Source: a virus. From it: a stretch of 64,000 bases of DNA. The position numbers were made by a program, and so were the translations under genes. The stretch lies in IMG/VR virus record IMGVR_UViG_3300044467_000006, positions 21,150 to 85,149 of that record; one strand, given 5' to 3'. A model generated the notes under the pieces. It saw only the letters and a list, made by a program, of their open reading frames with translations, was not told the origin of the DNA and did no database searches. This document shows positions 1,811 to 52,802 of this stretch, piece by piece (the stretch's first letter is position 1; every line of letters begins with the position of its first letter).

Positions 1811-4087
1811 TTACTTGAGCTTGCCCGGAGTTGGAATTTTTGGCCCAACCGTCGCGCCGCTAGAGAACTTGCTAGGTGGCATGAAATCGCTGTAATCACT
1901 TGTGGGCTTTGGGATCGCCTTTGGTGCTGCCTCTACGGCTGGGGCTGGTGCGGATTCGTGCCCGGCTCGAATGGATGCCGCCTGAACGTTTCCGGCATCC
2001 ATCCTTGACTGAGGCATGGCTGCCTTGCCCATCGTCCCGGCCTTACGGGGAAGCTTGGGCTTGGACATGGGAGGCTTGCCGGGGGTTGGGTTGCCACCGG
2101 GCGGCTTAGCCATTGGAGGGCCCGCCTTAGCCATTTCTGACGCTCCTAGAGGGCTTCCGGCTGCTGCCCCGGCAGAACTAGGGGCCTCGGGAGCCAAAGC
2201 GCCCTTGCCGAGAGCCTTGCCCTTGGTAATTTCGCCACCAGAGCCTTCGTCTAGTTTGCCCTTGACTTCCTTGCTCGGCTCGGCCGGACCGGGGGTCTCA
2301 GCGCCTACGTTCTTGATTCTAGGGCCACCCTTCGCGGCACTGTCCGTCGAAGTAGGACGGGCATTAGCGTTCTTAAGGTCGATGAAATCTTCTGACTTCT
2401 TGGCATCGCGCTTACGCTCTTCCGCAATAGAAAGAACGTGGTCAGGCCCTTCGGAATTTGGACCCTTCTTTGGATCGCGGAACGGGATTTGAGACAGTTC
2501 TGCTCCTTCGCGAGCATGGACGCCAGCAATGCGGTCACTGTCGTCAGACTTCAGTGTAGGCTGGCCCTTACGCTTAGCAGCAATCGCGGCAGCGGTATCT
2601 ACGACCTTGGCCGCTGCATTCTTGTCACCCTTAGCTTCGGCGTACTTGATGTCGTGGAGATTCTGGCGACGGACCGAAGTCTTTGATGGGTAGGTAGAAG
2701 CAGTGACATTCTTCCCCATCCACTCGTCAGACTTGTTAAGCTCGGTCGTCCACTCGCCATCCTCAAACGACTTCTGGAGATCCATCATGCATTGGCAGCC
2801 TTCACCTTCAAGGCCACAGAGGATACAGGCTTCAGACTTGCCCATCTTGTTGCACTTACACATTTCAGACTTACATTCCTTGCAAAGACCCTTCATCTCA
2901 TCCTTGCGGTAGGAAGAACCATAGCCCGGCAAACGCGCCTGCCTAAATGACTTGGCGGGCTGAGTGGGTACGGCCTTGGGGGCAGAAACCGCAGCTTGCT
3001 CGGCGGTAGAAACGTTACGCTGTGGCTGGGCCAAACCACGGTCTGGGGAAACAGGACCAGCATGACCGGGGAGAGCGGCCTTGGCAACAGGAGGAGCAAA
3101 AGCCTCTTGCTGCTCTTGAGCTTGCGCGTTAGGATTGGTATGAACAGGAGCCGTGCCGGGTCCGAAAGAATCGGGGTATTCAAACTTAGGGGCAGTTGCA
3201 TTGTGTTGGGGTGAGTCTACCGCCATCTGGCTCGCAGCCTGCGGACTGGCACGAGAGGCCCAGTCCTTTGCAGCAGCCATGGCGAGTTGATGGGCAGCTT
3301 GGGGATCGTTCGGGGTCTGCTTAAGTGCTACGTTTTGTAGATAGCTCTGGTAAACACGCTTCATGGCAACCGCCATATCCATTGCGTGGCTCTTCTTCAG
3401 TTCCTCGACCCACATCGACTCGGGAGAATCTACCATCAGGACGGTGTGGCTCTTTTTGAAGTCCCCGACAACCGCATCGACATTGCCGTTGACTTCGCGA
3501 CTAGCCAGATCCTCCAGCGACTTCGAAAATGCGGTAATCTGGCCTTGAAGGGTATGAGCTAGCTTGCGCTTGAATTCGGCAACGCTTACTTCGCTCTTCT
3601 GGGTGTCGTTATGGCTCATATCCGCTTCCTTTTTGGGAACATCTAGCAACTTGGTTGAATCAAAATTGAGTCTGACATGTCCAACCCCCGAGACTCGCGT
3701 TGTAAGACCTTCTTTGGGAGCCGATGGATGAACTTCCATCCCGGTTGATGGATGGTAGCGCCCGGCATTTTTCCCGTTAACGTAAATAAGTTCGTGCTGC
3801 CCATTCTCAGAGAAAATGACACTCTCTTGGCCCATTTTTCTGCCAAGTTCCATGACATGATCACGGGGAGCATTGTAAACGACGAACACGGGGCTCTTCG
3901 AAGAGCCACCTCCGTAATTGCCGTCTGTTTGCTCGTGTTGAAAGCCCGCTTGAGCCAATAGCTGTTCGAGCCCCTTGTGGCCACCGCCAACCTCTGGATG
4001 GAATCGGGGTTTCTCACCGCTGAGAATAGCGAATGGTTGCCCAGACTGGATGGGGTGTGCAGGAGGTTGCGGGTTTTGTTCTGGCAT
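1811..4087 (-). CDS. Putative internal head protein: DUF3293-like N-terminal domain plus long Ala/Pro/Lys-rich region with many K/[SA] motifs
   Basis: FAILSG...LGRKMGQESVIF resembles DUF3293; about 12 hydrophobic-x-K-[SAG] motifs; small Cys cluster. Confidence 0.5.
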   Translation of the reverse strand: MPEQNPQPPAHPIQSGQPFAILSGEKPRFHPEVGGGHKGLEQLLAQAGFQHEQTDGNYGGGSSKSPVFVVYNAPRDHVMELGRKMGQESVIFSENGQHELIYVNGKNAGRYHPSTGMEVHPSAPKEGLTTRVSGVGHVRLNFDSTKLLDVPKKEADMSHNDTQKSEVSVAEFKRKLAHTLQGQITAFSKSLEDLASREVNGNVDAVVGDFKKSHTVLMVDSPESMWVEELKKSHAMDMAVAMKRVYQSYLQNVALKQTPNDPQAAHQLAMAAAKDWASRASPQAASQMAVDSPQHNATAPKFEYPDSFGPGTAPVHTNPNAQAQEQQEAFAPPVAKAALPGHAGPVSPDRGLAQPQRNVSTAEQAAVSAPKAVPTQPAKSFRQARLPGYGSSYRKDEMKGLCKECKSEMCKCNKMGKSEACILCGLEGEGCQCMMDLQKSFEDGEWTTELNKSDEWMGKNVTASTYPSKTSVRRQNLHDIKYAEAKGDKNAAAKVVDTAAAIAAKRKGQPTLKSDDSDRIAGVHAREGAELSQIPFRDPKKGPNSEGPDHVLSIAEERKRDAKKSEDFIDLKNANARPTSTDSAAKGGPRIKNVGAETPGPAEPSKEVKGKLDEGSGGEITKGKALGKGALAPEAPSSAGAAAGSPLGASEMAKAGPPMAKPPGGNPTPGKPPMSKPKLPRKAGTMGKAAMPQSRMDAGNVQAASIRAGHESAPAPAVEAAPKAIPKPTSDYSDFMPPSKFSSGATVGPKIPTPGKLK

Positions 4088-4200
4088 ACCTTAGCCTCCA
4101 ATGACAAAGCCGCCCGTGGTGAGTAGCTCACCAGAGGCGGCACCGAGGTCGTGGCTGTCAATCGACAGGATTTGGGCAACATACATGACCGGCTTAAAGA

Positions 4201-5229: not shown

Positions 5230-6048
5230 TTACCGATGGCCTGTAGAGGCTTGCTGGATAAGGGCGAGAATTTCCGGCTTGATTGTCTGGTCCCATTCGC
5301 GCTCGGCCCAAGTATAGGCTTCGTCCATGAGTTTTTTCGCTGGAACGCCCGGATGAACCCACTTCCCAGATCCTTTCTGCGAGGAAGAAACCACTCGGAA
5401 GGTCATAGCCGTCTTCTGGATCATTGGACTGGCCCCGCCAATCTGGCGCTGCATGACTCTCATACCCTGAAGGAAAGGGGTGCCGGTCTGCCCTTGCCTG
5501 ACTTGGCCGATAGCTCCCCAACCCTGATAGGTGCCTTCCGATGTCTTGATGGGCTTGTCCATCACGTCGAGCTTGTGCAGTGCTCCGACTTTGGGTCGGC
5601 CATCGATCTCTTTCTCAATCTGCTTCATGTTGATGTTGGCGCGCTTGAGAGCATTCATAGCCGCAAGCCGGATTGGAAGGGCGTTAGGCGCAGTATTAGC
5701 GGCCCCCTTGATAGGGAAAGGGATGACCTTGTAACGGGTGCCCTTCTTGGATGTCATGGCATTCTTGAGAAGGTCGTCGATCATCTCGTGTCGAGGCATT
5801 CCTTCTTCAATCCACATCGCCTTCTTATCTAGGGTGACGGTCCATGCTCCACCTCCAGCGGCTTCATAGCTAAGAGCATTCAGGTATTCCTGTCGAGAAG
5901 TGCGAAGCTTGGACTGGGCGATCTCCACAACCTTTGAGTACGTCATGGCAGCAAGGTCTTCGGCTGACTGCGAAAGCATTGCATCTGCAATAGCCTTCAC
6001 CCGCTCGTGCATAGCGGAGATATCGCCAAGGTTGAGGTTGAGGATCAT
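5230..6048 (-). CDS. Virion structural protein (head-tail/neck region)
   Basis: 272 aa; YLNALS...WIEEG...VIPF...TFRVVS...WVHPG pattern resembles conserved large-myovirus neck proteins; synteny. Confidence 0.45.
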   Translation of the reverse strand: MILNLNLGDISAMHERVKAIADAMLSQSAEDLAAMTYSKVVEIAQSKLRTSRQEYLNALSYEAAGGGAWTVTLDKKAMWIEEGMPRHEMIDDLLKNAMTSKKGTRYKVIPFPIKGAANTAPNALPIRLAAMNALKRANINMKQIEKEIDGRPKVGALHKLDVMDKPIKTSEGTYQGWGAIGQVRQGQTGTPFLQGMRVMQRQIGGASPMIQKTAMTFRVVSSSQKGSGKWVHPGVPAKKLMDEAYTWAEREWDQTIKPEILALIQQASTGHR

Positions 6049-9000
6049 TAGTGCTTACCCGATGGGTTCTGACCTCCACCGGGGTTCGGACCCGGCTGGG
6101 GGTCACTTGCCTTGCCGTCCTTGGCGTCACGGCCAGAGACTCCGTTGATGTGGCCTGCGCCAGACATGGCTTCTGCGTGGTTGTCTGGAAGAACACGACC
6201 AGAGTACGAACGGCGATAGACGGTCTTTCCTTCTACTTTGCCGCTATTGGAAATGTGAGCCGCTTGCCCGGGGTCTTGGTGGAACTCGCGAAAGGGCATG
6301 ACTGTATTCTGGCCCTCTACGTGGATAGCGATGCCACCGTGGGGCTTAGCGGGAGTGTTATGCTTGGCTTGCTCTTCGGGAGTAGGCAGCTCCTCCTTGT
6401 CGAGATCCGTACCTTGCGGATACGGCCGATCCATGCGAGGCTCTACCTTTGTCCCGGCAGCCTTGGCGATTGCTCGGGGGCCGCGAAGTAAGGAGCTTTT
6501 CTTGATACTGAAGTCAGTGTTCTGCACCTTCACTTGATTGTCGATACCCGTACGTTTTGTCTCGCGGCGACCGCCTACGATTTCGTAAGCCTTCCCCAAC
6601 TCATCTTCCTTCTTGCGGACCTGATCGGCCCAGACAGCATTGCCCTTAAGGCTCTTAGACTTCTGAGTAGGCAGAGAACCGTATTGGGTAGGCTGATAAT
6701 TCATCTTCTCAGGACCAGCGCCGTATGTATTCCTCATGTGAACAGGCAAGGGCTCATCTGGATCCTGATCGGATAGCGGAGCTTTGCTCTCGGGAGTCCA
6801 AATATGGACGGGCGTTCCTACAGGATACTTCTGGCGAGCGAACTCGTGGAACGCATCGTGAAGAACTTGGTGAACTGGATGCCCCAATACTGTGCGGAAC
6901 TTCTTTTCATTCTCAGAGCCGAAGTCGTGCTGAATCTCATCGATATGGAGGCCCTTGTCGTCGCCCGTATAACGAATCCATCCAAGGCCAGAAACGGGCT
7001 CGCCGGGGTGGTCAGAGTTGTGGCCCTCATTCATAGTGACACCCTGCTTGAGCATCGCTTCTGTCGCCGCCGTAGGTAAAGAAACTCGCAAAACCTTGGA
7101 TGCGTCCTTGCTATGTTGCTGACCGCCATCCCATTTACCTTCAGTCAAATAGACAGGTATGCCGGGCAGGGAATCGATATGGCTTTGTAGCTCCTTAGAA
7201 CTGAAGTTGCCGTTGGGCAGTCTTCCGATCTTGCCAAGCGCTTGCGCTGCGCCACCTAACTCAGCGGGCTTCACTTCACCACCCTTGGCCTCAATGGAAT
7301 CGCGGATCTTGCGAATCTTGTGAAGACCGGGTTTGATGATAGTGGGCTTCACCCCATTCGCCGCGTGAACCGAATCTGGATCTCGGGCGAATGGCTCAAT
7401 CGCGGTAGGCGCATAGCCCAGCCGCGCGGCGACGAAGTGTTTTTTGCGTAGTTCGTAAAGCTCCTTAGCTTTTTCAAAAGGCACCTTTGGGCTTTGGATC
7501 AACTCTTTGAGCTGCATCACCGCGCGAGCGTGCTTCTCTTTGGTCGCTGACGAAGCCGTCACTTTGGGCGGTGCGCGGACAACTTTTTCATAGGCAGCCA
7601 CGAACTTGTCCATGTACTCTTGGGGGACTTTCGGGTGATTAAGGAGTTGAGTTTTTTGCCCTTCAGAGAGTCCCTTACTGGACAACTGCTTAAGAAGGTG
7701 AGGCAGTGGGGCTTGGGGGCTAATAAGCAATTGGGGCTTCCTATGGCCGGGAACCCTTTTGTTATCGAGAAGGCTGCCAATTTGAGTTTCATTGAGATCG
7801 ACGCGCCGAGCTACACGATCTAAAACATCAGGGCTCTTGTCCTGTATGAGCTTGTCTAGTGCCGCAGGAGACAAACGGGCCTCGTGCCCCGCCAATTTAC
7901 GACGGACGTGGGATTCGGGGTGGTTGGAAAGGAACGATTCCATTTCTGGCGTTAGCGGTTTGCGTTCTCGGGCTTCTAGCAAAGCAGGTAGGGCGTCCGA
8001 AGTGTCTATATCTTCGTCTTTGTTGTCAACGAAGTTGGTCAAAAACTTTTGCTCCAAAGGGCCATCCATCTTGGGATGGTTTGCAAAATCTTTGAGAATC
8101 CAGGCCAATTGGCCTTCGTTGTACAGCGCTCTTTGATGTAGCTTCACATAGTCGAGCATCTCGCTGAGCTTCTCGGGTGAAGTTTCGTCGTTGACAGCCG
8201 CCGCGCGAATTCTGCGGATGTCCGTAGCGCTCTTAAACAACGCCTCCTCAAAGAATTGCTCGCTCTTCTTGACCGCTTCCTGCTCTTCTTGTGGAGCTTC
8301 CTGACTGCCTCCACTAAAGGTCTTAGCCATCAGAATCATGGCTTGGATAGCACCGACGACAGCTTGGTAAGCTTCGGGAGCCTGAGACTGTAGCTGCTCT
8401 AGAACTGGAGCTTGGGCCTTGACCGCCTGTAGAATCTGGGAGATTTTTTGCTTTAGTTCGTCACCAGAAGAGCCACCCTGCGCAGCGGCATTAGCCTGAC
8501 CTTCTGCACGAGCCACCTCGGCTTCGCCTTGAGAAGCCATCTGGTGAAACTGTCGCTCAACGGGAGACAGTCCGTCGGCCATGTTGGTGGAAGATGGAGG
8601 AGGCGGCATTTCAGACGAGCCACCCGAGATGGGCTGTTGGGGAGTAAAGGGGCTTGCGCCTGACGTGTCATTGCGAAGGTTCTGGTGCTTGATAGCGTGT
8701 ACGCCACGGGGCTGTACAGAATGCGTAGGCGTATTGGACTTGTTAAGGCTCTTGAGCTTGTCGGGATCGGGACTAGGAGTCTTGCCAACGTGAGAGTCGC
8801 TCTGGGACTCTTCATCACCACCAACCATCTGCTCAATCTCTGGAGCGTAGAACAGAATTCGGGAGCCGCCGCGCTTCTTGCCAGCGTCCAATGCTTTCTT
8901 GGCTTCGCGGAGATCCAAGCCGACACCGATTGTGATGGTGTCGTTCCATGCCTCTTGGAGTTCCTCGTGGAGTTTGCCTAGTTCTGCAAGGCGTTCGCCA

Positions 9001-9206
9001 GCGACAGAGGCGTAGATTTCGTCCCCGTGGAACAAAAGTACCCGGCCTCCTCGCTCTTCAAGCCATGACCGCAATAGCTTATCGCCACGCTCGATGTCTT
9101 GTGACATCTGAGCGATCTTCTCTGGCTTGTTGTTGCGGATGGCCCGATCTACGGCAGGGCTGATGTTGTCCGCGTCGATGAGTAGGAAAATTTCTTGTGA
9201 AGACAT
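6048..9206 (-). CDS. Multidomain putative head cargo protein: N-terminal mCpol (minimal CRISPR polymerase) domain, helical repeats, GWIR/EIQHD domain
   Basis: Start ATG 9206 overlaps the HNH stop (TAATG). LIDADNI...GGRVLLFHGDEI...TITIGVG.DLREAKKAL.AGK..G fits mCpol; later GLGWIRY...IDEIQHD. Confidence 0.7.
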   Translation of the reverse strand: MSSQEIFLLIDADNISPAVDRAIRNNKPEKIAQMSQDIERGDKLLRSWLEERGGRVLLFHGDEIYASVAGERLAELGKLHEELQEAWNDTITIGVGLDLREAKKALDAGKKRGGSRILFYAPEIEQMVGGDEESQSDSHVGKTPSPDPDKLKSLNKSNTPTHSVQPRGVHAIKHQNLRNDTSGASPFTPQQPISGGSSEMPPPPSSTNMADGLSPVERQFHQMASQGEAEVARAEGQANAAAQGGSSGDELKQKISQILQAVKAQAPVLEQLQSQAPEAYQAVVGAIQAMILMAKTFSGGSQEAPQEEQEAVKKSEQFFEEALFKSATDIRRIRAAAVNDETSPEKLSEMLDYVKLHQRALYNEGQLAWILKDFANHPKMDGPLEQKFLTNFVDNKDEDIDTSDALPALLEARERKPLTPEMESFLSNHPESHVRRKLAGHEARLSPAALDKLIQDKSPDVLDRVARRVDLNETQIGSLLDNKRVPGHRKPQLLISPQAPLPHLLKQLSSKGLSEGQKTQLLNHPKVPQEYMDKFVAAYEKVVRAPPKVTASSATKEKHARAVMQLKELIQSPKVPFEKAKELYELRKKHFVAARLGYAPTAIEPFARDPDSVHAANGVKPTIIKPGLHKIRKIRDSIEAKGGEVKPAELGGAAQALGKIGRLPNGNFSSKELQSHIDSLPGIPVYLTEGKWDGGQQHSKDASKVLRVSLPTAATEAMLKQGVTMNEGHNSDHPGEPVSGLGWIRYTGDDKGLHIDEIQHDFGSENEKKFRTVLGHPVHQVLHDAFHEFARQKYPVGTPVHIWTPESKAPLSDQDPDEPLPVHMRNTYGAGPEKMNYQPTQYGSLPTQKSKSLKGNAVWADQVRKKEDELGKAYEIVGGRRETKRTGIDNQVKVQNTDFSIKKSSLLRGPRAIAKAAGTKVEPRMDRPYPQGTDLDKEELPTPEEQAKHNTPAKPHGGIAIHVEGQNTVMPFREFHQDPGQAAHISNSGKVEGKTVYRRSYSGRVLPDNHAEAMSGAGHINGVSGRDAKDGKASDPQPGPNPGGGQNPSGKH

Positions 9207-9631
9207 TAGGAGATCCTCTTGTTGTGTTTCCGCGAGTTGCAGGACTTGCAAGCAGGGCGCAAGTTAGCTGGCCAATTGGTGCCACCTTTAGATAGAGGGA
9301 TAACGTGGTCGATGGTAGTCCCCTCAATTTTGCAGTCCGCAAGCTTAAGCCAGCACTTCCCACCCCACATTGCCTTGCGAGACTCCCACTGCGACAAGCT
9401 GCATTGCCCTTTAGCATTTCGCTTGCGGGCGCGTCGGCAGCTTTCTGCGAGAGCGTGGACTTGTTTCCCGTGAGTGGTTTCTCTGTAGGCTTTCTGGTAG
9501 ACGGAAACCTTGTCCTTGTTGGAATCCCTGTATTTTTGGGCTGCTTTGTTTTCTGCGTCAGGGAATTTGGCCAGATAAGCAGCCCTGTACCTGCGACTCT
9601 GCTCTGGAGTAGATTTACCTTGACTTGCCAT
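9206..9631 (-). CDS. HNH homing endonuclease
   Basis: TIDHVIPLSKGGTNWPANLRPACKSCNSRK is a canonical HNH motif. Confidence 0.9.
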   Translation of the reverse strand: MASQGKSTPEQSRRYRAAYLAKFPDAENKAAQKYRDSNKDKVSVYQKAYRETTHGKQVHALAESCRRARKRNAKGQCSLSQWESRKAMWGGKCWLKLADCKIEGTTIDHVIPLSKGGTNWPANLRPACKSCNSRKHNKRIS

Positions 9632-11570: not shown

Positions 11571-11576
11571 GCGTCC

Positions 11577-12400: not shown

Positions 12401-12406
12401 ACCTGC

Positions 12407-13130: not shown

Positions 13131-13131
13131 T

Positions 13132-15435: not shown

Positions 15436-17388
15436 CTACTTCTTGCCGGGGATACGGCTCTTTGAAGCTCTACCAGATTCCTTACACGCTGAACAAGTTA
15501 CGCTATGATCGGTATCTCCAAACTCCAAAACGTGTTCGCCACGCCCCTTGCACTCTTTGCACGATCCTGAATCCTCATTCGGACTCTTCTCAGCCATCTT
15601 GATATCGAGCTTGGCGGGCTTGGGCATTCCGCTCGTGTCGGTAGTCTTGATCTTGGGGGCTTGGGCCGCATTGGCCTGAGTGATCGCCGCTAACGCACCG
15701 GGGGCCATCGGCTTAACCCCAGCCGTAGAAGGCGCAGTAGGGGCCGCGATCTTGCCAGCGGGAGCAGGAGCGCCACCTGACATGCCCGGCGTAGGAGCGC
15801 CCGGCAAAGCTTTGGCTAGCTCTTCCGCCTTCTTGAGCACACCGATAAGGTTCTTCCTAAGCTCTTCTAGAATTTCTTGCTTGGTCATATCTTCCGCCTT
15901 CTTAATGGTACCCTTGTAGGTTTCGGTACTCGGCCTCCATTCGGCATCCTTGCCGCCAGTCATACGAGGCTTCTTCTGAAACTTCGGATTGCTCTGCGTA
16001 GGAATCTCTCCGTACTGGCCGGGAATCATGCCGCGCTTCTCGGGGACAACACGGTATCCTTCGTGGAAGTGACGAGGCAGCGGGCGCTTGGTACTCATGC
16101 GGCCACGAGGGTCTGGGTCTGCGATGGTCTGGTAGCCCTTAGCTTCTGGCGTCCAGATATGGACAGGAGCACCAGCTAAGTCGCCCGGCCCACGAGCCCA
16201 TGAGTCAAAGCCTTCTTGTAAGACTTCGGCTGGGTGTTTATTACCAAATAGCACTTTGGCAATTACCTTGCGCTGATCTTCTGGAAACTGCTGCATGAAG
16301 TCGGCTAGGTAGCGCTCGCGGTGTTCAGGACGGCCCTCGCCACGGCCAATCGCCTTATCGACAGCCTCGGACAGCATAGCAGGCCAAGGGCGACCATAGT
16401 CGGTCTGCACTTCGTCTACCATGACTCCAGACTTGTCGCCAGTGTGACGAACCCAGCCAATAGTATCAGGACCAACCGGGTGTCCACTCTGAGTAGACAT
16501 CTCGTTCATCTGTCTGAAAGCGCCCATAACTCCAGCTTGCTCAAGCTGCTGCTTGTGCTGCGGAGTCAAGTCTAGACGTAGGACGTTAGATAGCTCGTTA
16601 GAGTGACGCTGAGTTGCTCCTGCGGCGTGATCGAACTTACCAGTGCTCCAGTTATACTGAGCAGCCGGTTGGGAGTCGATGAACTGCTGGATGCGCTCGC
16701 GAGTGAAATTACCGCCGTAATCACGACCAACACGCATCAACTGGGAGCGCATCTCCGGGGTTAGATCCTTCTCGTTAATAGACTTGATGCCTTGCTGGTC
16801 AAACCAGTCGCGAAGACCGCGAAGCTTGTTCGTGAGGAAGTTGACTTCCAATGGATGGTCGCTAGCCTTGACTAGCTGGAACACCGGAGTTTCGCTCTTG
16901 CCGAGCTTGCTACCAAAGAGATCGTACTCTGGGGCGTTTCTTTCCCAGACGGCCCATTCGTTCTCGGGAAGCGGCAAGGGCTCGCTCTTTCCTAGCAAGA
17001 AGGCGTCAGCCTTGTGCGCTTTGAACTTGGGAGCAGGCAGGCGTGAGGGGTCGCTCATTGCCGACTGAATCTCGTCTGGAATCTGATGGTCGTCCGCCCC
17101 AAAGCCAAGAGACTGGCGGTGGAGGTCATAGACCAACTTGTGTTTCTTGGCGGCTTCGTTAGAACCAGAGGCAGCGGCAGCCCGCATCATCCCGAGGTGA
17201 TAGGCAGCGCCCTGCACATGGTGCTTGCGCTTGTAGTCGTTGTAGGCTGCATCTTCGGCTTCGCCGCGAGGCTTACGATTGACAAACTCTAAAGTGCCAG
17301 CGCCCCGTTCTAATTCGGGGATGTCGTCGGCTGACAAAATGTAGCGGCGTTTAGGTCCATTGGACCACTCTGGAAGCTTAACGGCCAT
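15436..17388 (-). CDS. Putative head cargo protein with GWVR/EVQTD domain and Zn-finger tail
   Basis: TIGWVRH...VDEVQTD...HIWTPEAK is paralogous to 6048..9206; flanked by LGKSE twice and IKKAE/LKKAE. Confidence 0.6.
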   Translation of the reverse strand: MAVKLPEWSNGPKRRYILSADDIPELERGAGTLEFVNRKPRGEAEDAAYNDYKRKHHVQGAAYHLGMMRAAAASGSNEAAKKHKLVYDLHRQSLGFGADDHQIPDEIQSAMSDPSRLPAPKFKAHKADAFLLGKSEPLPLPENEWAVWERNAPEYDLFGSKLGKSETPVFQLVKASDHPLEVNFLTNKLRGLRDWFDQQGIKSINEKDLTPEMRSQLMRVGRDYGGNFTRERIQQFIDSQPAAQYNWSTGKFDHAAGATQRHSNELSNVLRLDLTPQHKQQLEQAGVMGAFRQMNEMSTQSGHPVGPDTIGWVRHTGDKSGVMVDEVQTDYGRPWPAMLSEAVDKAIGRGEGRPEHRERYLADFMQQFPEDQRKVIAKVLFGNKHPAEVLQEGFDSWARGPGDLAGAPVHIWTPEAKGYQTIADPDPRGRMSTKRPLPRHFHEGYRVVPEKRGMIPGQYGEIPTQSNPKFQKKPRMTGGKDAEWRPSTETYKGTIKKAEDMTKQEILEELRKNLIGVLKKAEELAKALPGAPTPGMSGGAPAPAGKIAAPTAPSTAGVKPMAPGALAAITQANAAQAPKIKTTDTSGMPKPAKLDIKMAEKSPNEDSGSCKECKGRGEHVLEFGDTDHSVTCSACKESGRASKSRIPGKK

Positions 17389-18235
17389 GGCGTGAGACTC
17401 CTAGCGTATCTAATACTGTGGCAACGGCATCGTCGTCCATTGCTTTGCCGAACGTAATGACGTAATGTTCAGCGTCGTGCTTTGCTAGGTCTACAAACCG
17501 AGCGGTCTCTTTTAAACACATACAGCCAACAAACTTCTCGTTCTTGACGAGAGCTAGGCCACACTCTTTGCATTTTGAATCAATCGACTTGGCAGTAATC
17601 TGGAAACTCTTTTTGGCAGTTACCTTCAACTTCGGGATAGTAGCCTTGGGGGGCTTTGCTTCTTTGGGTGGTCCCTTGGGTTGTTTGCCTACGGGACCTG
17701 GCTGTCCAATCTGTTTAGTTGGAGGCGCGGCTACCTTTGGAGGGGCGGGAACTCCCGAGCGCGTAGGTGCTCCCGGTGCGCCAGAACCAGCCCCCTTGCC
17801 CTGCGCGATCTTCTTAATAAGATCGTCTGCGCTTGCTACATACTTAGCCTTAGCCAAAACATCGATACTCTTCCCTAGCTTAACCAAGTCCGTATCCTTG
17901 ATGTTTGTGTCTTCGAATTCTGCGTCCAATGCCAGCGCTACAGAAGCAGCAAGATGGAAGACGCTGGCGTTCTGAAACGGGAATACCCCACTGCCAATAG
18001 CAATGGAGCCGGTGTAGGTTGAGTCTATGTTCTTTGCAAAGTCGAGATAGGAATCCTCTACGCCGGGGAGTTCGCCTTCGTAGTCACCCCGCGCTGCAAC
18101 GCCTAACCACGCCATGATGGCGCGGGGCACAATAGCAGACTCCAGATTTTCGATCCTGTCAGCAGCCTTTTTAAGCGAGCACGCACCGTCGTCGCCAAGT
18201 ACCGCTTTAAGGAAGGCATACTTTCTATCATCCAT
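17378..18235 (-). CDS. Putative virion protein with Pro/Lys-rich linker and Cys motif
   Basis: Preceded by CAATCTT; LGKS motif; CKEC...CMC. Confidence 0.45.
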   Translation of the reverse strand: MDDRKYAFLKAVLGDDGACSLKKAADRIENLESAIVPRAIMAWLGVAARGDYEGELPGVEDSYLDFAKNIDSTYTGSIAIGSGVFPFQNASVFHLAASVALALDAEFEDTNIKDTDLVKLGKSIDVLAKAKYVASADDLIKKIAQGKGAGSGAPGAPTRSGVPAPPKVAAPPTKQIGQPGPVGKQPKGPPKEAKPPKATIPKLKVTAKKSFQITAKSIDSKCKECGLALVKNEKFVGCMCLKETARFVDLAKHDAEHYVITFGKAMDDDAVATVLDTLGVSRHGR

Positions 18236-40880: not shown

Positions 40881-41453
40881 CTACACCTTCTTCCTGTAGC
40901 GAAGCTTGCCCAAGCCAGTCTCTAGAGTGTACATGATGCGCTCGGTCTCTCTGGTCGAGAGCTTGGTGCCGTTCATAAACACTTCCTGCCCGTGAACCTC
41001 AAGAATCTGAGGCTCCTTCATTCCAACCCTCATGTAGTCAAAGACCGCAGGAGGAGTTTGCATACTGAAGCGAGGAGAGTTGGGGTCCACGATCTGGGGA
41101 GCTTCTGCGCTTGCGGGTTGCTCGACAACATCAGGCGGGCTGCCGGGTTGCGGACCGGAAGGATCGGGATTTTCTTTCCCTTGAGGGATTAGTCCTATGT
41201 GATGCCCTTCTTTGACCTCAGACTCGGAAACCACTTGAGTATATGGAGAGCGAGCCAAGGAATCAAGTTGCTGTAGACTGTGCCCAACAGGACCATTGGA
41301 CAACATCTTGAGCATGCCGTTATGATCCTCAAGGACTCGGAGCTTCCCATCTTCGATCATGAAGCGGCCCAAAAGAAGTCGCTGGTTGCCCTTCTCGTTA
41401 GGATAGACCCCATATACATCGAAGATTCCGTTAGCATTTTGGAAGTCAACCAT
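40881..41453 (-). CDS. Hypothetical head-module protein
   Basis: 190 aa between the protease and GGDEF genes, tightly coupled. Confidence 0.55.
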   Translation of the reverse strand: MVDFQNANGIFDVYGVYPNEKGNQRLLLGRFMIEDGKLRVLEDHNGMLKMLSNGPVGHSLQQLDSLARSPYTQVVSESEVKEGHHIGLIPQGKENPDPSGPQPGSPPDVVEQPASAEAPQIVDPNSPRFSMQTPPAVFDYMRVGMKEPQILEVHGQEVFMNGTKLSTRETERIMYTLETGLGKLRYRKKV

Positions 41454-41455
41454 AG

Positions 41456-44400
41456 TTATCCCTTAATGTATTTGCCCATATGCTTGTGGATATGTGGCTC
41501 CATGTAGTCCAAGATGCGCTTCTGGAAATCTTGGTCTGTTTCTCCATCGCCTCGCTCTGGGCCATGCCACTGTCGAGACAATGCATCTAAACTATAGCCT
41601 AAGCTGTTTAAATACCCCGCCGGGTCTGCACCTTTGGAGATTCCGCGGGCCAACCTATTGGCCCCTTCGTCCCTATTGCGATGAGCCTCTCGCCTCTCCG
41701 AATTTCCTCGGCGGCGAATTGAGTTATTGAATTCAGTAACGGCTTCATCAAAAGTCATATCGGCGTGATGAGCAAATTTCTTGATGATGTTCTCGGCTTC
41801 TCCCGGGCCACGATTCGACATGAGAAGCTCGTAAGGAACGGGCGCTTCGCCTTTTCTTGAAGCCGACTCATGGTCCTTACTTACTGCAAGGCTAGCGAGG
41901 TCGTAGTCCTGCTCAGCTTCGGGCAAATTTTGGATACGAGCCTTTACCTCTTTAACCCGTTCTGCGTGACGAGCAAGGACAGAGAAATCCTTGTATGCCC
42001 TCTCTCGAATCTGAGGGGCATGCATTCCTGTCCATCCCGAATTTGCAAACCCCAGATAAGACGTGATTTCGTCCACCGATGCGTCTGGCTCTACAGACGC
42101 ATAGTGTTGGAGATTCTCTAGCCGCTGCCGTGCCGCCCGAGCTACGGAAACAGGAACATCGTGATCTTGGATCTCTTTAGTAAACTTGTCCTTGTCGATG
42201 CCCATCAGCCATTTTCTGGCATCGGGATGCAAGCGGTTGTCATTGTGTCCGGCGGCTTTTGCCGCTTCCTGTGCAGGAACCATATAATCGCTTCGATCGT
42301 CGCCTACACCACGAGAAGGGAAAGAGTCGCCATGGTCAATGAGGTAGATGTTATCTCCTTTAGCCCCACCGAACATGAAATTGTTTAAGTGGCGGTCGCG
42401 AGCACCAAGCATCTGATCTGCGAGAGCCAATTTGTGAAGCTTGCCGTTCTGAATATTCTTTACGAAAGCGCTATTTTGCTCCTCGTCCCCATCGCGCTGG
42501 TGAGCGGCGTTGGGAATAGCCTCATGAACGGACCACCAATCATTGGGCCTTGGCTCTTCGTTGGTCTTCAGGTTGGGGTTTTGGAAGATTGAAGTAGGAG
42601 CTACGTGCTCGCCCAAGCCAAGATGATGCATCATATTGTGAAACATGATCTCGTTAAGCGCACTGGATCTGCCATCTCGCTGAGTGGAAAGAGTCTTGAT
42701 GAAAGCTTGCTTGCCATTAGGTAGCTTGACCCATCGGCCTTCGGAGATACCCGACTTAAAATGTTCTGGCGAAAACTGGGCTGCGGCATTGTGATCAAAG
42801 CCGTGGACCATCTGTCTCTGGTAATCATTGATGATTAGATTTGAAGGCACGTGACGATCGGCATCCACAACGCCCGGTGGCATGTCGAGGAACTCTGGCT
42901 CCGAGTGAACTTCAGCGGAACCGTCAATGCCCCAGCGCTCCATGTGCTCTGGAGAGAAAGATCCAAGATGTTCATGAGGAACCATCAGCCATTCACCGAC
43001 AGGTGCGTCGGGGTGGGCTGGAGCCGTGCCAACGATAGCCATTTTGCGACCACCTTCAGCCCGGGTACCATCCTTGTTGAAATAGATAGTGGCAGAACCC
43101 GGCTTGATCTTTTGGTCCTTGTGAATGATGGTCGGCTGTGAGGTCGGGGGCCATTCCTCTTCGGGCTGAGCCGGGAGAGTGCCCTTTAGAAGATTGGAGC
43201 CTGACTTGAAAAGACGACGTGCTTCAACCTCGAACGCTTCCATCTTGCGAATAGAAGTTTCGTCATAGCTGCGGGTTCTGTCGTTGGTCATCAGCGCGGG
43301 GGCACCCCAAGTGTAAAAGAAGAAACTGGCCGGTCCTTCGCCAAAATCCTTCTCAACACGCTTGGTCGCCTTGGCAATGCGAACCGTAAGCGGCTCGCCG
43401 TACTGGTCCTGAGATTTCTGCATGTTCCACATTTTAGACGGATCGGTTAGGTCGTGGGGGATGCCTTCCTCGTCCATGATTTGGCCAACCGACTTAAAGA
43501 ATGGGTCGTGGGCCGTCCCCATGTTGAAGTTGTCAGTATCTCGACCAAGCAAAGCTTCATAGTGCGGATACGCAAGCCATTGAAGCCAGAACGCGGGACC
43601 AACCGCTTGCATCTCGCGGCCCTTGAAATGATCAGGCCACATTTCGTGAACCTTCTGGACAGCAGGAGCCTTCTGGAAGAAATGATGGTCGATACCGCGC
43701 AAAAGAGTTTCGCCACGGACAGGGGTAAGGGCGTTGAAAACCTGTTTAGCTTGCTCTGAGTTTTTATCGGAGATGTTAAAGAGAGCGCGAAGTTGGTGAC
43801 GGTCGGGAATAATCATATTACCCTGCCCCATCATCAAACCCATGTATCGAGCGAGCTTAGGCCCAAAACCATACATGAAGGAGTCGGCTCCCTCGCTTTG
43901 CTTCTTCTGCATGATATAGTCAACGAACGCTCGGCCGTCGTCCTTGACTTCCCGCTGTAGAGCGACCATGAAGGGGTGAAATCTGTGGTAATTCAGGAGC
44001 GGTCTGCCTTGCGGCCGATCCGCTAGAACAGCGCCAGACGTGGCGGGGTCGTAACCCGCTCGGCGCTTGGTGCGGGATGCGTCATACTCGATTCCGCCCT
44101 TCTCTTGGGTACGACCAACATAGAAGTCGCGGAAAAATTCAGGAGGGGTAGTCTTGTTGAGCCAGCGGTGAAAGTGCTCTGCGTCCTCTGGTTTGATACC
44201 TTCGGGCTTGCTAAAGACATCGCCGTGCTTCGCTCGGAAATCCATATAGTGCCCATAGTAAAGCTCCTGCATAGGCACGCTGGTATTTGGGGACATTGCA
44301 GCAAAGATGGCGGCATGGGCAATAACGCTAGACGGTAGCTGGCCCTGCGAAGCCATCTTGTTGAGCACCAGCCACGAGGACATGGCGCGCTGCCAAGGTT

Positions 44401-45730
44401 TATGAACGTAGTTGACAATCTTCTCCCTGCGCTCTGGGTCGAGCATGGGAGAAAGAGAGGGACTGTCTGCATTTAAAACGTTGAGAAAGTGCTCGTCTTG
44501 TCCGTAATCATACAGCTTGAGCGGCGTTGTTGGAGTGCTCAACTTCTGACTTAGCAGTTCTCCCCTAGCAGTTAAGCTTCTAGAAGCCTTTGTCTTGGGA
44601 GGAACTTCCAGTGGATTGGCCGCTTCAGGACGAGGGTGATACATCTTGGGTTCTTGGGGCTGGGCTTCGGGAGCCGTAGTCTCTGGAGGAGCAGAAGCCA
44701 TAGAAGCAAGAGCTTGCTCTGCTCCGCGCTTCTCGGCTTTCTGGACTGCTCCCCAGACGCCCATGGCCTTTTCAACCCAGTCGCCAACCTGACGGGTACG
44801 GATGTCCCCTACTAAATCAGTGAAATGGTCTAGAAAGCTCTCGTTGATTTCGGGTAGCTGAAACTTGAAGAACTTAAGCATGTCGGACTTGGAGTAGCCG
44901 TGCTCAACAGGGCTGTAGTCTCGAACGGCAGCCCTAAGCTGGTTCTTGAACTTCTCCTTGTCCTTCATGCCCATGATATCTTCTCGGGCAAGCGCCGCGC
45001 CACCCGTGAGAGTAGAAGGAGCGGCATCGCTAGCTCCACCGGTCATGGTCTTGTTAAGTGAGGGATCTCGGGCCTCAACTTCAACATAACGAAGATCCAT
45101 TGCGTGGCTACCAAGTTTCTGGTGTCCCGGGCGCTCACTCTTGACGGTGTCCTCTTCTAGTAGGCGAGCTAACAGACTCCTCTCGGCTTGCTTCTCGGTA
45201 ATGGGCTTTGGAGCATTGGGGTCCGACACGAGGCCCGAGATCGCTGCTTTGTTGGCTGGCTTAAGGGTTATAGCCACAGCCCTACAGATGGTTTTAACTA
45301 GCTTTTGCCCTTCTTTTTTAAGTGTTGAGCCTTCCACGCTGTAGCGGGCAAGAATAGGCTCATTGTGAGTTACAGAGTCCCTGATGATAGCGGCAATTGC
45401 CTTAGCGCCCGCATGCCCAGAACCATCAAATAGGCGAGCTTTGATATACACGAAAGGTAGATTGGTTGCCTTCCAGTAGGCTTCTTGGCGCTTGTCGTCA
45501 CAATCCTCTTTGCTAAAAATCTTCTTGGCAAAAATGATTTTGCCCACAGTGTCATTGCCTGATGCACCAGAGGAATCCGATCCTCGATGTTCCCAATTAA
45601 GGGTGCCCACTCCAGAGGTGAAGTCGCTAATGTCCGCTCCGTTGATGTCAAGGATTTCGCCGCTGCTATCAATAGCACTAGAGCAAGCAATCCCGTCGAT
45701 AATCATACTGTTAGTGGAAGTCGCGGCCAT
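41456..45730 (-). CDS. Prohead protease (HK97/S78-like) fused to an HhH-glycosylase-like domain and a PI3K/HipA-like kinase
   Basis: IDGIACSSAIDSSGE...LNWEH...YSVEG...PAN protease; LNKTMTGG...TGGAALARE capsid-like motif; AMSPNT...GFGPKLA...PDRH; FIKTL...DRHLNN...IDHG. Confidence 0.8.
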   Translation of the reverse strand: MAATSTNSMIIDGIACSSAIDSSGEILDINGADISDFTSGVGTLNWEHRGSDSSGASGNDTVGKIIFAKKIFSKEDCDDKRQEAYWKATNLPFVYIKARLFDGSGHAGAKAIAAIIRDSVTHNEPILARYSVEGSTLKKEGQKLVKTICRAVAITLKPANKAAISGLVSDPNAPKPITEKQAERSLLARLLEEDTVKSERPGHQKLGSHAMDLRYVEVEARDPSLNKTMTGGASDAAPSTLTGGAALAREDIMGMKDKEKFKNQLRAAVRDYSPVEHGYSKSDMLKFFKFQLPEINESFLDHFTDLVGDIRTRQVGDWVEKAMGVWGAVQKAEKRGAEQALASMASAPPETTAPEAQPQEPKMYHPRPEAANPLEVPPKTKASRSLTARGELLSQKLSTPTTPLKLYDYGQDEHFLNVLNADSPSLSPMLDPERREKIVNYVHKPWQRAMSSWLVLNKMASQGQLPSSVIAHAAIFAAMSPNTSVPMQELYYGHYMDFRAKHGDVFSKPEGIKPEDAEHFHRWLNKTTPPEFFRDFYVGRTQEKGGIEYDASRTKRRAGYDPATSGAVLADRPQGRPLLNYHRFHPFMVALQREVKDDGRAFVDYIMQKKQSEGADSFMYGFGPKLARYMGLMMGQGNMIIPDRHQLRALFNISDKNSEQAKQVFNALTPVRGETLLRGIDHHFFQKAPAVQKVHEMWPDHFKGREMQAVGPAFWLQWLAYPHYEALLGRDTDNFNMGTAHDPFFKSVGQIMDEEGIPHDLTDPSKMWNMQKSQDQYGEPLTVRIAKATKRVEKDFGEGPASFFFYTWGAPALMTNDRTRSYDETSIRKMEAFEVEARRLFKSGSNLLKGTLPAQPEEEWPPTSQPTIIHKDQKIKPGSATIYFNKDGTRAEGGRKMAIVGTAPAHPDAPVGEWLMVPHEHLGSFSPEHMERWGIDGSAEVHSEPEFLDMPPGVVDADRHVPSNLIINDYQRQMVHGFDHNAAAQFSPEHFKSGISEGRWVKLPNGKQAFIKTLSTQRDGRSSALNEIMFHNMMHHLGLGEHVAPTSIFQNPNLKTNEEPRPNDWWSVHEAIPNAAHQRDGDEEQNSAFVKNIQNGKLHKLALADQMLGARDRHLNNFMFGGAKGDNIYLIDHGDSFPSRGVGDDRSDYMVPAQEAAKAAGHNDNRLHPDARKWLMGIDKDKFTKEIQDHDVPVSVARAARQRLENLQHYASVEPDASVDEITSYLGFANSGWTGMHAPQIRERAYKDFSVLARHAERVKEVKARIQNLPEAEQDYDLASLAVSKDHESASRKGEAPVPYELLMSNRGPGEAENIIKKFAHHADMTFDEAVTEFNNSIRRRGNSERREAHRNRDEGANRLARGISKGADPAGYLNSLGYSLDALSRQWHGPERGDGETDQDFQKRILDYMEPHIHKHMGKYIKG

Positions 45731-47428: not shown

Positions 47429-47583
47429 CGCGAGCGAAGAAGATCGAGGAGGCGGCGAGGGCGCACATCGAGAAGATGCGCTTCGTCGATTGTGGCCTGA
47501 CGACGTGCGAAATGACGGCCTGCGCCATCGCCCGCCTCGACCGCGTGACGGGCGCGAAGGTGGTGGAGGGGGACAAGGGATGA
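47425..47583 (+). CDS. Small hypothetical protein (high-GC island)
   Basis: ATGA overlaps at both ends; SD AAGGAG. Confidence 0.5.
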   Translation: MTRAKKIEEAARAHIEKMRFVDCGLTTCEMTACAIARLDRVTGAKVVEGDKG

Positions 47584-50737: not shown

Positions 50738-50738
50738 A

Positions 50739-52802
50739 TTAAGCCTTCTTCTTGGGTGAGTGTTGCTCTGCTATATCAAGGATTGCGGAAATGGTCTTCT
50801 TTGCGTCCTGTTCCCATCCATCCATGATGTGGGAGACGGTCTTCTTCTGCTGTGCGAGGAGTCTGCGCTTGGAGGGAGGTAGCTGGGCTTCGGACTTACC
50901 GAGGGTACCGAGCAACTGGTCTACACTCCTCGTTAGGTCGCCACCACCCTCTTGGTCAGGAGGAGCTTCGCCTTCCTTGGGGGTAGCTTCCTGCCCGCCC
51001 CCGCCTTCTCCTCCCCCTTCGGGCTGCGGGCCTTCGCCTCCACCCTCTGGAGGCGGACCGCCCTGCTGAGCTTGTTGCTGTTGGGCTTGGGCCTGCATTT
51101 GCATTTGCTGTTGTTGCATTTGCATTTGTTGCATCTGGAACCAGAAAGGGTCTCGCATGTAAGCCATGGCCGGATTCTGAGTAGCTCCCTTAACTCCAAA
51201 GAACTTCTCTTGGATCTGGCCAACGGTTAGATACTTGTCAAGAATGGCTTGGAACTGTGGGTTAAGCGGGAACTCGCCACCAAACTCCTTGCCGATAGGA
51301 TCCTTTTCGACTTTCGCCAGAACCTCGTCGTAGTTCATGTGCAAAGGAGCGTCCGTAGAAATGCGGACCGCTTCCTTCTCAGCGGAATCGGCGTCTAGGC
51401 CAACGAGCTTAATGACGCAAAGCTTGGCTAGCTCCTCGTCCATGACGGGGAATACAGCGGTGTTAAGGAAGTCTTCAAACTGGGCAAGTAGAGGGCGAAT
51501 GCCAGTATCTCTGTGGGCCTCTAGCTGATATTCCTTGTTGGACTCGGCAAGCGACTGGTTGTTGGTGCCTCGTGAAAGGTGAGCATAACCCGGGAGTTCT
51601 TCAGGAGACATCTGGAACGCCGACAAGATGACTCGGGCGTTCATGTCGCTTAGATACTGGAATTCCATATCTCGCGACGTGGTTTCGATCTGCTGGAACT
51701 GGACGTTGTCTTTGGAGCCAACGCTAAACACAGGCATGCGCCACGAGTTGTTGACGTTGTTGATGTTCGCTTGAAACTGCTGGCGAATTTTGTTAACCTG
51801 TGGCTCGGTCAGATCCTCGGATTGAATGACCAACATTCCCTTAGCCGCTCGACCGCTCTGGAAGAAGAGCTTGTTGTGGGTGGTAATGTTGATGTGGGTG
51901 GTGACTGCTGCGATGACCGTATCCAGCGGAGTAAGAGGGTAGCCTTGAAGCTCAACGTCGGTAACAGGGAAGACGTTGTGGACGTAAAGCTCCTCGCCCG
52001 TAAACACCTGAACGGGCTTGCCATCGATAACCTGCACCCACGGATATTCCTCTTCCTCAAGCTGTTTTTCTTCCAGCTTGCGGTTCAGCATCTGTTCCAT
52101 GAGGCGCTTGGCTTGAATGCGGACGGCCTCGGCAGAAGTCTTGTAAGGAGCAGCGCGGTAGATGGTACCCGCGTCAACAGGACGGAAGGAATGGAACTCC
52201 TCTTCGCCACTGTCGTTGAAACCGTAGAGGAATTCCGTCGCAAACCTACCAACGACAAGAGCGTTGCGCACTTGCATAGATAGGAATCGAGAAAGGGTCA
52301 TCCGTTCTTCGACGGCATAGCCCTTAGATGTACCACAAACCAGAAGCCGTTGCTCAAACTTGTTAGCTCTCTTGCCTAACTCTTCCTTTTCTTTCTCGTC
52401 TGCTCGCTCGATAATTTCGGGTTTGATGTCAACCTTGAAACCCAGAGAAAAACGATCTGGCTGTGGACGGCCGAACGCGCTAATGTGGTTAGAGCGGGCA
52501 CCAATGATGGAAGCAACGAGGTCGTCCTGAATTGAAACGCGCTTGAGAAGAAAGTCAGGAATGAGGCGAACCTTCTGACGGAAGATTGCCGCATACTCGT
52601 TGTTCATCGTCGGATCGCGCTCGAACGCTAAGCGCTGAATCCGGTCTTCTCCTTCTCCAAGGGCAGCCATCATGCTCTTAACCAACGAGGTTGCCCCGGG
52701 CTGATCGTCTTGCTCTTGCTTAAGAAGCTCAGAGACAGGCGTACTGTTGGGGTCAGCCAAGAAGAGTTTAATTTCCTTGGTGACTGCGGATTTCTTAGCC
52801 AT
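50739..52802 (-). CDS. Portal protein
   Basis: SPO1/Herelleviridae-like: FRPVDAGTIY, GYPLTPL, NKLFFQSGRAAKGML; long Gln/Gly-rich C-terminal tail. Confidence 0.85.
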   Translation of the reverse strand: MAKKSAVTKEIKLFLADPNSTPVSELLKQEQDDQPGATSLVKSMMAALGEGEDRIQRLAFERDPTMNNEYAAIFRQKVRLIPDFLLKRVSIQDDLVASIIGARSNHISAFGRPQPDRFSLGFKVDIKPEIIERADEKEKEELGKRANKFEQRLLVCGTSKGYAVEERMTLSRFLSMQVRNALVVGRFATEFLYGFNDSGEEEFHSFRPVDAGTIYRAAPYKTSAEAVRIQAKRLMEQMLNRKLEEKQLEEEEYPWVQVIDGKPVQVFTGEELYVHNVFPVTDVELQGYPLTPLDTVIAAVTTHINITTHNKLFFQSGRAAKGMLVIQSEDLTEPQVNKIRQQFQANINNVNNSWRMPVFSVGSKDNVQFQQIETTSRDMEFQYLSDMNARVILSAFQMSPEELPGYAHLSRGTNNQSLAESNKEYQLEAHRDTGIRPLLAQFEDFLNTAVFPVMDEELAKLCVIKLVGLDADSAEKEAVRISTDAPLHMNYDEVLAKVEKDPIGKEFGGEFPLNPQFQAILDKYLTVGQIQEKFFGVKGATQNPAMAYMRDPFWFQMQQMQMQQQQMQMQAQAQQQQAQQGGPPPEGGGEGPQPEGGGEGGGGQEATPKEGEAPPDQEGGGDLTRSVDQLLGTLGKSEAQLPPSKRRLLAQQKKTVSHIMDGWEQDAKKTISAILDIAEQHSPKKKA

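Follow-up and report, generated by a model that had tools for sequence, protein, structure and literature searches.

A lysine-ended motif as a candidate prohead-protease site on head proteins and enzyme polyproteins of an uncultivated Mx1-like myophage

The DNA analysed here is a 64-kb window (positions 21,150 to 85,149 of IMG/VR virus record IMGVR_UViG_3300044467_000006), part of a single 94-kb contig with genes located mainly on the minus strand. Its gene content is that of the late/structural region of an uncultivated myophage similar to Myxococcus phage Mx1, with a head module of the SPO1 (Herelleviridae) type. A short motif, comprising a hydrophobic residue, any residue, lysine and then serine, alanine or threonine ([LIVMF]xK[SAT]), is in excess both in the core head proteins and in a set of very large enzyme-bearing proteins encoded between the genes for the major capsid protein (MCP) and the tail sheath. 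The motif probably marks the sites of the head-maturation protease, on head proteins and at the joints of enzyme polyproteins that would be cut inside the capsid. The proteins, with their lengths in amino acids (aa), are listed in Table 1 and are referred to by their first coordinate or by length.

An earlier note on this DNA had proposed that such a motif brackets enzyme domains across the head module, and every motif string quoted in it is present in the named protein, including LVK/ALEAGG at residues 29-37 of the open reading frame (ORF) at 36917-38398 and LNK/TMTGG at residue 225 of the 1424-aa ORF at 41456-45730. The 12 proteins of that note contain 60 matches against 28.7 expected from whole-protein shuffles (z about 6), and the other 38 ORFs of the window contain 33 against 33.1. 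Since these 12 proteins had been picked for having the motif, the proteins were regrouped by gene class. The counts were then 21 against 12.3 in the core head proteins, 42 against 19.8 (z 5) in the eight large enzyme proteins encoded between the MCP and the sheath, 13 against 10.6 in the small structural ORFs and 17 against 17.7 in the non-head ORFs; the 44 ORFs of the contig that lie outside the window gave 25 against 27.8. In the eight large proteins the excess persisted when residues were shuffled inside 20-residue blocks, which keeps the local composition (42 against 20.9, p<0.001), and control motifs made of the same residues (reversed, shifted by one, with R or E in place of K, or with G, N or Q at P1') were not enriched. 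The excess is real, specific and about twofold, and roughly half of the individual listed occurrences are therefore background. Per protein, the excess is centred in the scaffold (5 matches against 0.76 expected) and in the 41456 (11 against 4.4), 6048 (9 against 3.8), 15436 (7 against 2.3), 17378 and 1811 proteins; for the last of these, credited previously with about 12 motifs, the strict count is nine.

Residue preferences were compared with the aid of relatives found by a search with a two-sequence MCP alignment, which comprise 61 viral contigs and 80 metagenome contigs. A scan of all twenty residues over 100 scaffold homologues revealed preferences for K at P1 (20-fold), L or M at P3 (about 30-fold) and S at P1' (8.6-fold). 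The same ranking, although weaker, was found in the protease proteins (K 5.1-fold at P1), and in same-strand ORFs downstream of the MCP gene K was again the top of the 20 residues at P1 (2.9-fold), with M and L at the top at P3. Family-wide raw numbers are inflated by the kinship of the loci, with their direction unaffected; in these terms, observed counts exceeded expectation in 40 of 54 loci (40 against 14) for downstream ORFs on the MCP strand and in 15 of 30 (15 against 15) for those on the opposite strand.

The MCP, as its sequence relatives indicate, most likely begins at Met20 of the listed ORF 36917-38398 (nt 38341). Because the closest relatives begin at this methionine, the propeptide of the window MCP would consist of 12 residues ending in LVK, with the predicted site LVK/A (K codon 38306-38308). 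The N-terminus of the MCP in 81 distinct relatives follows the pattern M-x(9-12)-L-x-K/[AT]-[LMI]-E-[AV]-G. The scaffolding protein received no assignment from Pfam or PHROG. Its five motif lysines are 92-99% conserved in 88 distinct homologues of about 33% identity and, together with the following S/A and E/D, rank among the best-conserved columns of a protein that is otherwise of low complexity; across the scaffold family the extended form h-x-K-[SAT]-[ED] (h, hydrophobic) occurs 551 times against 31 expected. The portal protein contains two candidate sites, LVK42/S (codon 52677-52679) and LGK636/SE (codon 50895-50897), with the lysines conserved in 50% and 62% of relatives, respectively, and the extended form occurs 27 times against 6 expected in its family.

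The 1424-aa protein is the orthologue of the Mx1 "putative prohead protease", and its gene is located between the portal gene and the scaffold and MCP genes. In the N-terminal domain (residues 1-175) G134 is invariant besides the four residues given in Table 1 (26-sequence alignment, 32-51% identity). The AlphaFold2 model built from this alignment has pLDDT values mostly above 90 over residues 10-180 (148 residues >90). Its best Foldseek matches in the PDB are herpesvirus assemblin proteases, which occupy the 31 top ranks and nearly all of the 50 matches listed, with E down to 7e-4 and prob up to 1.0 but TM scores of only 0.3-0.4; a PDB sequence search with the protein gave no match at E<=1. 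The modelled domain looks as expected for a divergent assemblin-fold prohead serine protease, with predicted activity. Among the 11 motif sites of this protein, K227, K331, K772 and K842 are conserved in 98, 71, 75 and 88% of relatives, while the remaining seven are not conserved (0-29%, one not alignable).

The most conserved of these lysines, K227, is directly followed by a copy of the capsid N-arm. The shared module, h-x-K/[AST]-x-x-A-G...A-A-P-S-x-L-x-G-G-x-A-L, is found at about residue 215-260 in 43 distinct protease orthologues, and a hidden Markov model of it matched only the MCP (38270-38308) and the protease protein in the whole 94-kb contig. The proteases of SPO1 (L143), P100 (L144) and ISP (L145) also carry a 25-30-residue copy of the capsid mature N-terminus after a K/[SA] site. 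Being common to Mx1-like phages and Herelleviridae, the copy is ancient, and it may serve as a docking element for the protease in the procapsid. No paper describing a capsid N-arm copy in a prohead protease was found. The module was also considered as a portable tag on other, opposite-strand proteins of relatives; this was rejected, as those proteins are protease orthologues in inverted orientation. One subgroup of relatives (L012, L023, L025, L097, L128, L131, L133, L141 and others) has such an inverted protease gene upstream of the capsid gene, and in its proteases the insert that precedes the N-arm copy is longer, extending to residue about 320-550.

Protease orthologues in relatives range from 174 to 1639 aa, some of them being as short as Herelleviridae proteases. 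The GGDEF cyclase, a separate protein in the window, forms a C-terminal extension of the protease protein in 14 relatives, 12 of which also include the 40881-like domain. In the closest relative, L063, the sole fusion whose joints were inspected, the joints are LCK1211/T and LAK1387/T, and they align with the starts of the two separate genes of the window (40881-41453 and the GGDEF gene). The GGDEF protein of the window has a short N-terminal peptide ending in LAK22/TD (codon 40814-40816); the L-x-K is conserved in 90% of 32 homologues, with E or D at P2' in 87%. The L063 protease protein also contains, ahead of the N-arm copy, a domain located between LVK261/S and IRK580/SE-LFK586/A. This domain of about 250-300 aa, named GWIR after its signature GW[IV]R...E[IV]Q.D, is likewise found inside protease polyproteins of relatives and occurs in three proteins of the window (6663-7320, 15994-16888 and about 27100-28060). 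A kinase similar to that of the 19771 protein and the N-domain of the 1811 protein (residues 21-154; in L047) sit within the protease proteins of other relatives. By homology, the domains of the downstream giants of the window are of the same kinds as those that ride on the protease in relatives.

Within the large proteins, the sites are often located next to domain starts. All four GNAT units of the window (three in the 1867-aa and one in the 590-aa protein) start directly after L-x-K, following K6, K215 and K1684 in the 1867-aa protein, and the linker behind each unit contains a further L-x-K/R-x-E. The GWIR start of the same protein follows LGK1313/A, and LGK/A or LGK/SE precedes the domain in two of its three window copies. 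In relatives, the GNAT unit occurs at positions 132, 181, 281, 480, 897 and 1862 of proteins of different architectures, and six of the seven hits are preceded by h-x-K/[SA], sometimes doubled. A kinase domain inside a 989-aa protein of L059 starts after VQK558/SE-LAK564/S, matching the N-terminal LAK17/S of the window kinase 21760. In 32 large proteins of relatives, a site was located within -25..+8 residues of 23 out of 59 internal domain starts, against 10.8 +/- 2.9 expected from permutation, for an interval that was set after examples had been seen.

An AlphaFold2 model of the 15436 protein shows two folded domains connected by low-confidence linkers. K134, K164 and K497 are located in linkers with pLDDT<50, an isolated helix contains K520/K526, and K174 is placed at the edge of a domain, whereas K345 lies within the fold; all four refined sites are outside both folded domains, three of them in linkers and one in the isolated helix. 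The earlier statement that the motif often sits at domain boundaries is supported by these comparisons. In the 6048 protein, K157 and K171 follow the minimal CRISPR polymerase (mCpol) domain, K310, K329, K340 and K594 are located mid-protein, and K887, K918 and K930 follow the GWIR domain. Several sites in the large proteins are conserved in relatives. The GWIR domain was modelled confidently in the 15436 protein, and Foldseek found no significant PDB match for it; the weak rows (prob <=0.1) were mostly of the GNAT fold and were not counted. For the 22905 protein, which had been called an "ART", neither Pfam (at E<=5) nor PHROG gave a match and no homologue was found in the 142 loci, so that this assignment was not upheld.

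Two further features of these large proteins were observed. The mCpol domain (window 8847-9188) is located at the N-terminus of the 6048 protein, a late protein; such a domain is unusual for a phage and might bear on mCpol-based defence of the host. The 1811 protein contains a Cys-rich stretch (window 2730-2860) with C-x-C and C-x-x-C pairs, in which K417, K439 and K452 are placed among the cysteines; this stretch may be a zinc-binding joint.

What the analysis shows are the sequence statistics, conservation, fold, and gene fusions and fissions described above; the cleavage itself, the packaging and the ejection of the proteins are inferred. Leu, Met or Ile-x-Lys followed by Ser, Ala or Thr, often with Glu or Asp next, is very likely the recognition site of the assemblin-fold prohead serine protease. 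In the prohead, this enzyme would remove the 12-residue MCP propeptide, cut the scaffold at its five conserved sites, trim the portal and cut itself at LNK227/T, and the N-arm copy just behind this site may dock it in the shell. It is likely that the protease gene has grown into a polyprotein gene, with the same sites standing between the passengers (kinase-like here; the GGDEF cyclase and the 40881-like and GWIR domains in relatives), which would enter the prohead as parts of the chain and be set free inside it. The giants encoded between the MCP and the sheath, with their GNAT, PI3K-like kinase, mCpol and GWIR domains, would most likely also be head-internal polyproteins cut into single enzymes, a role to which we assign about an even chance. 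An exit of the cut products together with the DNA, and an early action of these products in the host, is a tentative suggestion made only by analogy with T4 Alt, the internal proteins and the ejection proteins of phiKZ and SPN3US. More doubtful still is a general scheme of modular cargo, in which enzyme domains flanked by L-x-K/[SA] would move among the protease polyprotein, the other giants and stand-alone genes, and the virion would deliver a lineage-variable set of ready-made enzymes before phage gene expression, with the protease as both anchor and processor and the N-arm copy as its dock. The delivered set would include mCpol, GGDEF cyclases, PI3K/HipA-like kinases and acetyltransferases, which could, for example, pre-empt nucleotide-signalling defences.

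The same site can be recognized in the SPO1-like Herelleviridae (SPO1, P100/A511, ISP/K), which have the same gene order of portal, protease, scaffold and MCP. At the aligned position of the MCP N-terminus there is K/[SA], within a strict motif in SPO1 (LNK23/ALEAG) and ISP (VVK24/SFQTG) and outside the strict P3 set in P100 (ALK24/SFTTG); tblastn alignments of the MCP to 40 phage records start at residues 20-26. Their proteases carry the N-arm copy directly after a K/S site near residue 165-170 of a protein of about 260 aa, and the scaffolds of SPO1, P100 and ISP contain 11, 3 and 7 h-x-K/S sites, respectively. The presence of the same three features in these phages makes the motif an old property of this protease lineage. 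The A511 capsid protein reportedly loses 23 residues ending in Lys. The literature search retrieved no usable published K/S cleavage rule for Herelleviridae and no paper stating mature N-termini; the cleavage at K/S that had been ascribed to the capsid proteins of phage K and A511 thus agrees with the conserved K/S seen in silico at the aligned position, but no paper that states the cut was retrieved. Differences from these phages are also evident: their proteases are of about 255-265 aa and lack passengers, whereas the window protease gene encodes 1424 aa, the MCP-to-sheath interval of the window is swollen by giant enzyme proteins, and inteins and inserted metabolic genes are present in the head module. 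In proteases of the HK97 type, anchoring of the enzyme in the procapsid is attributed to a C-terminal tail that follows the protease domain; the window segment differs in being a recognizable copy of the capsid N-arm placed directly after a predicted cleavage site.

In T4 (gp21) and in phiKZ (gp175) and SPN3US (gp245), likewise, one assemblin-fold protease cuts many head proteins, and itself, at one short motif (PMC10052503; PMC5512222), and the processed internal and ejection proteins (T4 Alt and IPI-III; the E proteins of SPN3US) include enzymes that are later injected. The SPN3US protease recognizes A-x-E at 14 sites in nine substrates, nearly all of them N-terminal propeptides (PMC10052503). 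The motifs of T4 and phiKZ/SPN3US end in Glu (L/I-x-E, A-x-E), whereas that of the window ends in Lys. Known cuts in those phages mostly remove N-terminal propeptides, whereas the window sites lie between enzyme domains and are predicted to yield several enzymes per chain; moreover, unlike in T4 and phiKZ, the window has a cargo chain that begins with the maturation protease as its own first module, and genes fuse and split at the sites. Another comparison is offered by the polyvalent proteins of phages and conjugative elements, which combine GNAT, kinase and other conflict domains in one chain. In portal-terminase phages their genes belong to the morphogenesis region, and packaging was predicted for these proteins, perhaps with self-processing through metallopeptidases embedded in the chain (Iyer et al. 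2017, PMC5512222). The window chains similarly join unrelated conflict-type domains: three GNAT units with GWIR, GNAT with a kinase-like domain, mCpol with GWIR, and the protease with a kinase-like domain. The companions of polyvalent proteins, an embedded metallopeptidase or a MuF domain, were not found by Pfam at E<=0.01 in the large window proteins. The proposed processing agent also differs, being the embedded metallopeptidase in the one case and, as predicted here, the head-maturation protease acting at its own motif in the other. The main text of PMC5512222 contains no mention of mCpol.

A number of observations weigh against the proposed reading. The kinases, the GNAT-kinase (2 sites against 1.9 expected), the 22905 protein and the 1867-aa protein (8 against 5.4, not significant alone) individually have motif counts near expectation. 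Many of the window sites are not conserved in relatives, as judged from coarse alignments, which understate site conservation in multi-domain proteins. Some sites fall within folded domains, namely K146 in the protease, K345 in the 15436 protein and K354 in the 26401 protein. The L-x-K before each GNAT unit could have been inherited with the duplicated domain, and the interval of the boundary test was chosen with examples in view. Sites within the first 30 residues are enriched only mildly, being found in 5 of 27 late genes against 2.1 expected, and no common targeting peptide was found in the downstream proteins, whose short peptides show no obvious shared sequence in an informal comparison. 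The protease identification has to contend with the low TM scores of the assemblin matches, and residues 1-450 matched neither Pfam at E<=5 nor a PHROG protease family. The kinship of the loci inflates the family-wide counts, and the literature search found no virion proteomics for Mx1-like phages, the Mx1 paper being a genome announcement.

In a rival explanation, the motif would be a true protease site in the canonical head set only, that is, in the capsid propeptide, scaffold and protease and perhaps in the portal and the protease-linked passengers, while the MCP-to-sheath giants would be late cytoplasmic or otherwise unprocessed proteins with an excess arising from linker habits or from the common descent of duplicated domains. 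In its favour, the core set has the strongest conservation, motif counts in several downstream proteins do not exceed chance, the L-x-K ahead of the GNAT units belongs to a duplicated sequence block, and no targeting signal was identified. This alternative is nevertheless rather unlikely, since the z of about 5 in the eight large proteins holds under local-composition shuffles and control motifs, the P1/P3/P1' profile of the downstream ORFs matches that of the scaffold, the GWIR, kinase and 1811 N-domains occur inside protease polyproteins of relatives, and the sites cluster at domain starts and in predicted linkers. It is less probable again that the giants are polyvalent proteins packaged intact, in the manner of the N4 virion RNA polymerase, with the motif serving, for example, in docking to the protease or scaffold. 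Packaged polyvalent proteins that remain uncut are known (PMC5512222), and 42 head proteins of SPN3US are uncut (PMC10052503), but gene fission exactly at motif sites and the location of sites in disordered linkers argue against this, as does the identity of the signature with the sites of the capsid and scaffold proteins, whose established role in related phages is to be cut. It is hardly credible that a loose four-residue pattern simply recurs by chance and was picked out by eye: the motif is degenerate, and chance would account for about 20 of the 42 matches in the large proteins, but the statistical controls, the column conservation in 88 scaffolds and the same signature in Herelleviridae effectively refute it. 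Processing by the head protease at the core sites and at the joints of the giants remains the reading that we favour. Of the earlier proposal, the comparisons support that the protease is made as a long polyprotein and that the motif behaves as a cleavage signature of the lineage, shared with SPO1-like phages; packaging of the giants is conjectural, and ejection wholly so. The estimate of about 30 kb of precursor genes was too high, as genes for the neck/tail and for nucleotide metabolism and mobile genes are found in the same span.

Should the cuts prove real, a simple sequence rule would tell which proteins sit inside the capsid in a widespread group of soil and sediment phages (>100 related contigs), and enzyme cargo would be processed in polyprotein style by a capsid protease. 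Candidate pre-made effectors against bacterial defence systems would also be named, including two kinds of nucleotide cyclases, kinases and acetyltransferases. The prediction is directly testable in phage Mx1, which can be grown on Myxococcus xanthus and whose MCP, protease and scaffold have these sites, and the capsid N-arm copy, common to studied phages of Staphylococcus, Listeria and Bacillus, provides a testable idea for protease recruitment.

Table 1. Genes and segments of the window discussed in the text; site counts are given as observed against expected.
Feature	Coordinates	Strand	Remarks
Large terminase	53834-57001		Intein-interrupted; gene order read from high to low coordinates
Portal protein, 687 aa	50739..52802	-	Pfam Phage_portal and PHROG portal families
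Conserved head-module protein beside portal	48803-50737		Intein-bearing
RlaP-like (Pol-beta superfamily) nucleotidyltransferase	47334-48671	+	Between intein-bearing head gene and protease gene
Predicted prohead-protease polyprotein, 1424 aa	41456..45730	-	Protease domain, predicted self-cleavage site with capsid N-arm look-alike, passenger region of about 1170 aa
Protease domain proper	45206..45730	-	Residues 1-175; invariant H48, H106, S131, E133
Predicted self-cleavage site LNK227/T and copy of capsid N-arm	44978..45052	-	N-arm copy at residues 228-251
PI3/PI4-kinase-like catalytic segment in passenger region	42311..42475	-	Residues 1086-1140; Pfam PF00454, E 1e-4 to 4e-5, below gathering score
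190-aa protein, no assigned function	40881..41453	-	Separate gene here; within protease polyprotein in 12 relatives
GGDEF nucleotide cyclase, 240 aa	40157..40879	-	Pfam GGDEF, E 1e-9
Scaffolding protein, 293 aa	38352..39233	-	P/G/A-rich; five sites K35, K203, K230, K240, K269
Major capsid protein	36917..38341	-	PHROG major head protein; 56% identity to Mx1 MCP
ThyX thymidylate synthase	36195-36854		Directly after capsid gene, within structural operon; Mx1 also has a thymidylate synthase gene there
1867-aa multi-enzyme protein	26401..32004	-	GNAT units about 7-215, 216-408, 1685-1867 (Pfam GNAT, paralogy); GWIR about 1317-1633; about 900 aa unassigned
372-aa paralogue of 21760 kinase-like protein	25281..26399	-	3 sites against 0.9; K58 in 6/6 aligned relatives
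686-aa protein, "ART" of earlier note	22905..24965	-	3 sites against 1.55; set membership by position alone
381-aa PI3/PI4-kinase-like protein	21760..22905	-	Pfam match below gathering score; N-terminal peptide ends in LAK17/S
590-aa GNAT and kinase-like protein	19771..21543	-	Pfam; LSK7/A before GNAT unit; linker with LAR/SE and LAK203/QE
285-aa protein, no assigned function	17378..18235	-	5 sites against 2.0; K23 conserved in 88%
650-aa protein	15436..17388	-	Helical N-domain 1-116, linker, GWIR 168-465, linker, zinc-finger-like C-terminal tail
Opposite-strand cassette in mid structural region	9702-15287	+	Treble-clef zinc-finger/restriction-endonuclease-like (MTES_1575) protein, NIF3 family, radical SAM, ATP-dependent DNA ligase
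1067-aa protein	6048..9251	-	mCpol cyclase 22-135 (Pfam, E 8e-11), long linker region, GWIR 644-863
758-aa Cys-rich protein, no assigned function	1811..4087	-	9 sites against 3.3

The nearest named phage is Mx1, with collinearity of the whole region to the first 41 kb of its genome; SPO1-like Herelleviridae are remoter MCP relatives (MCP homology 24-26%). The head module had no Megablast match in the phage collection, and scanning viral contigs with a single MCP sequence likewise gave no hit; the two-sequence alignment then gave 140 loci. MCP identity of these relatives is mostly 48-81%, with two fragments higher and one outlier at 26%. Many of their contigs are 150-170 kb long, and their sources are soil, sediment and fresh water.

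The gene order of the window continues from the terminase to the portal, the 48803 protein, the 1424-aa protein, the 190-aa protein, the GGDEF cyclase, the scaffold and the MCP. The MCP gene is followed by genes for ThyX and a transglycosylase-domain protein and then by those for small virion proteins interspersed with very large proteins. At the low-coordinate end of the structural run there are an endonuclease VII gene and the start of the tail sheath gene (3-1298). The plus-strand block 9702-15287, ThyX and the RlaP-like gene, for which no homologue was found among the 142 loci, are not head cargo. Both inteins, in the terminase and in the 48803 protein, are of the LAGLIDADG type, and the Mx1 orthologues of these two proteins (668 and 259 aa) are free of insertions.

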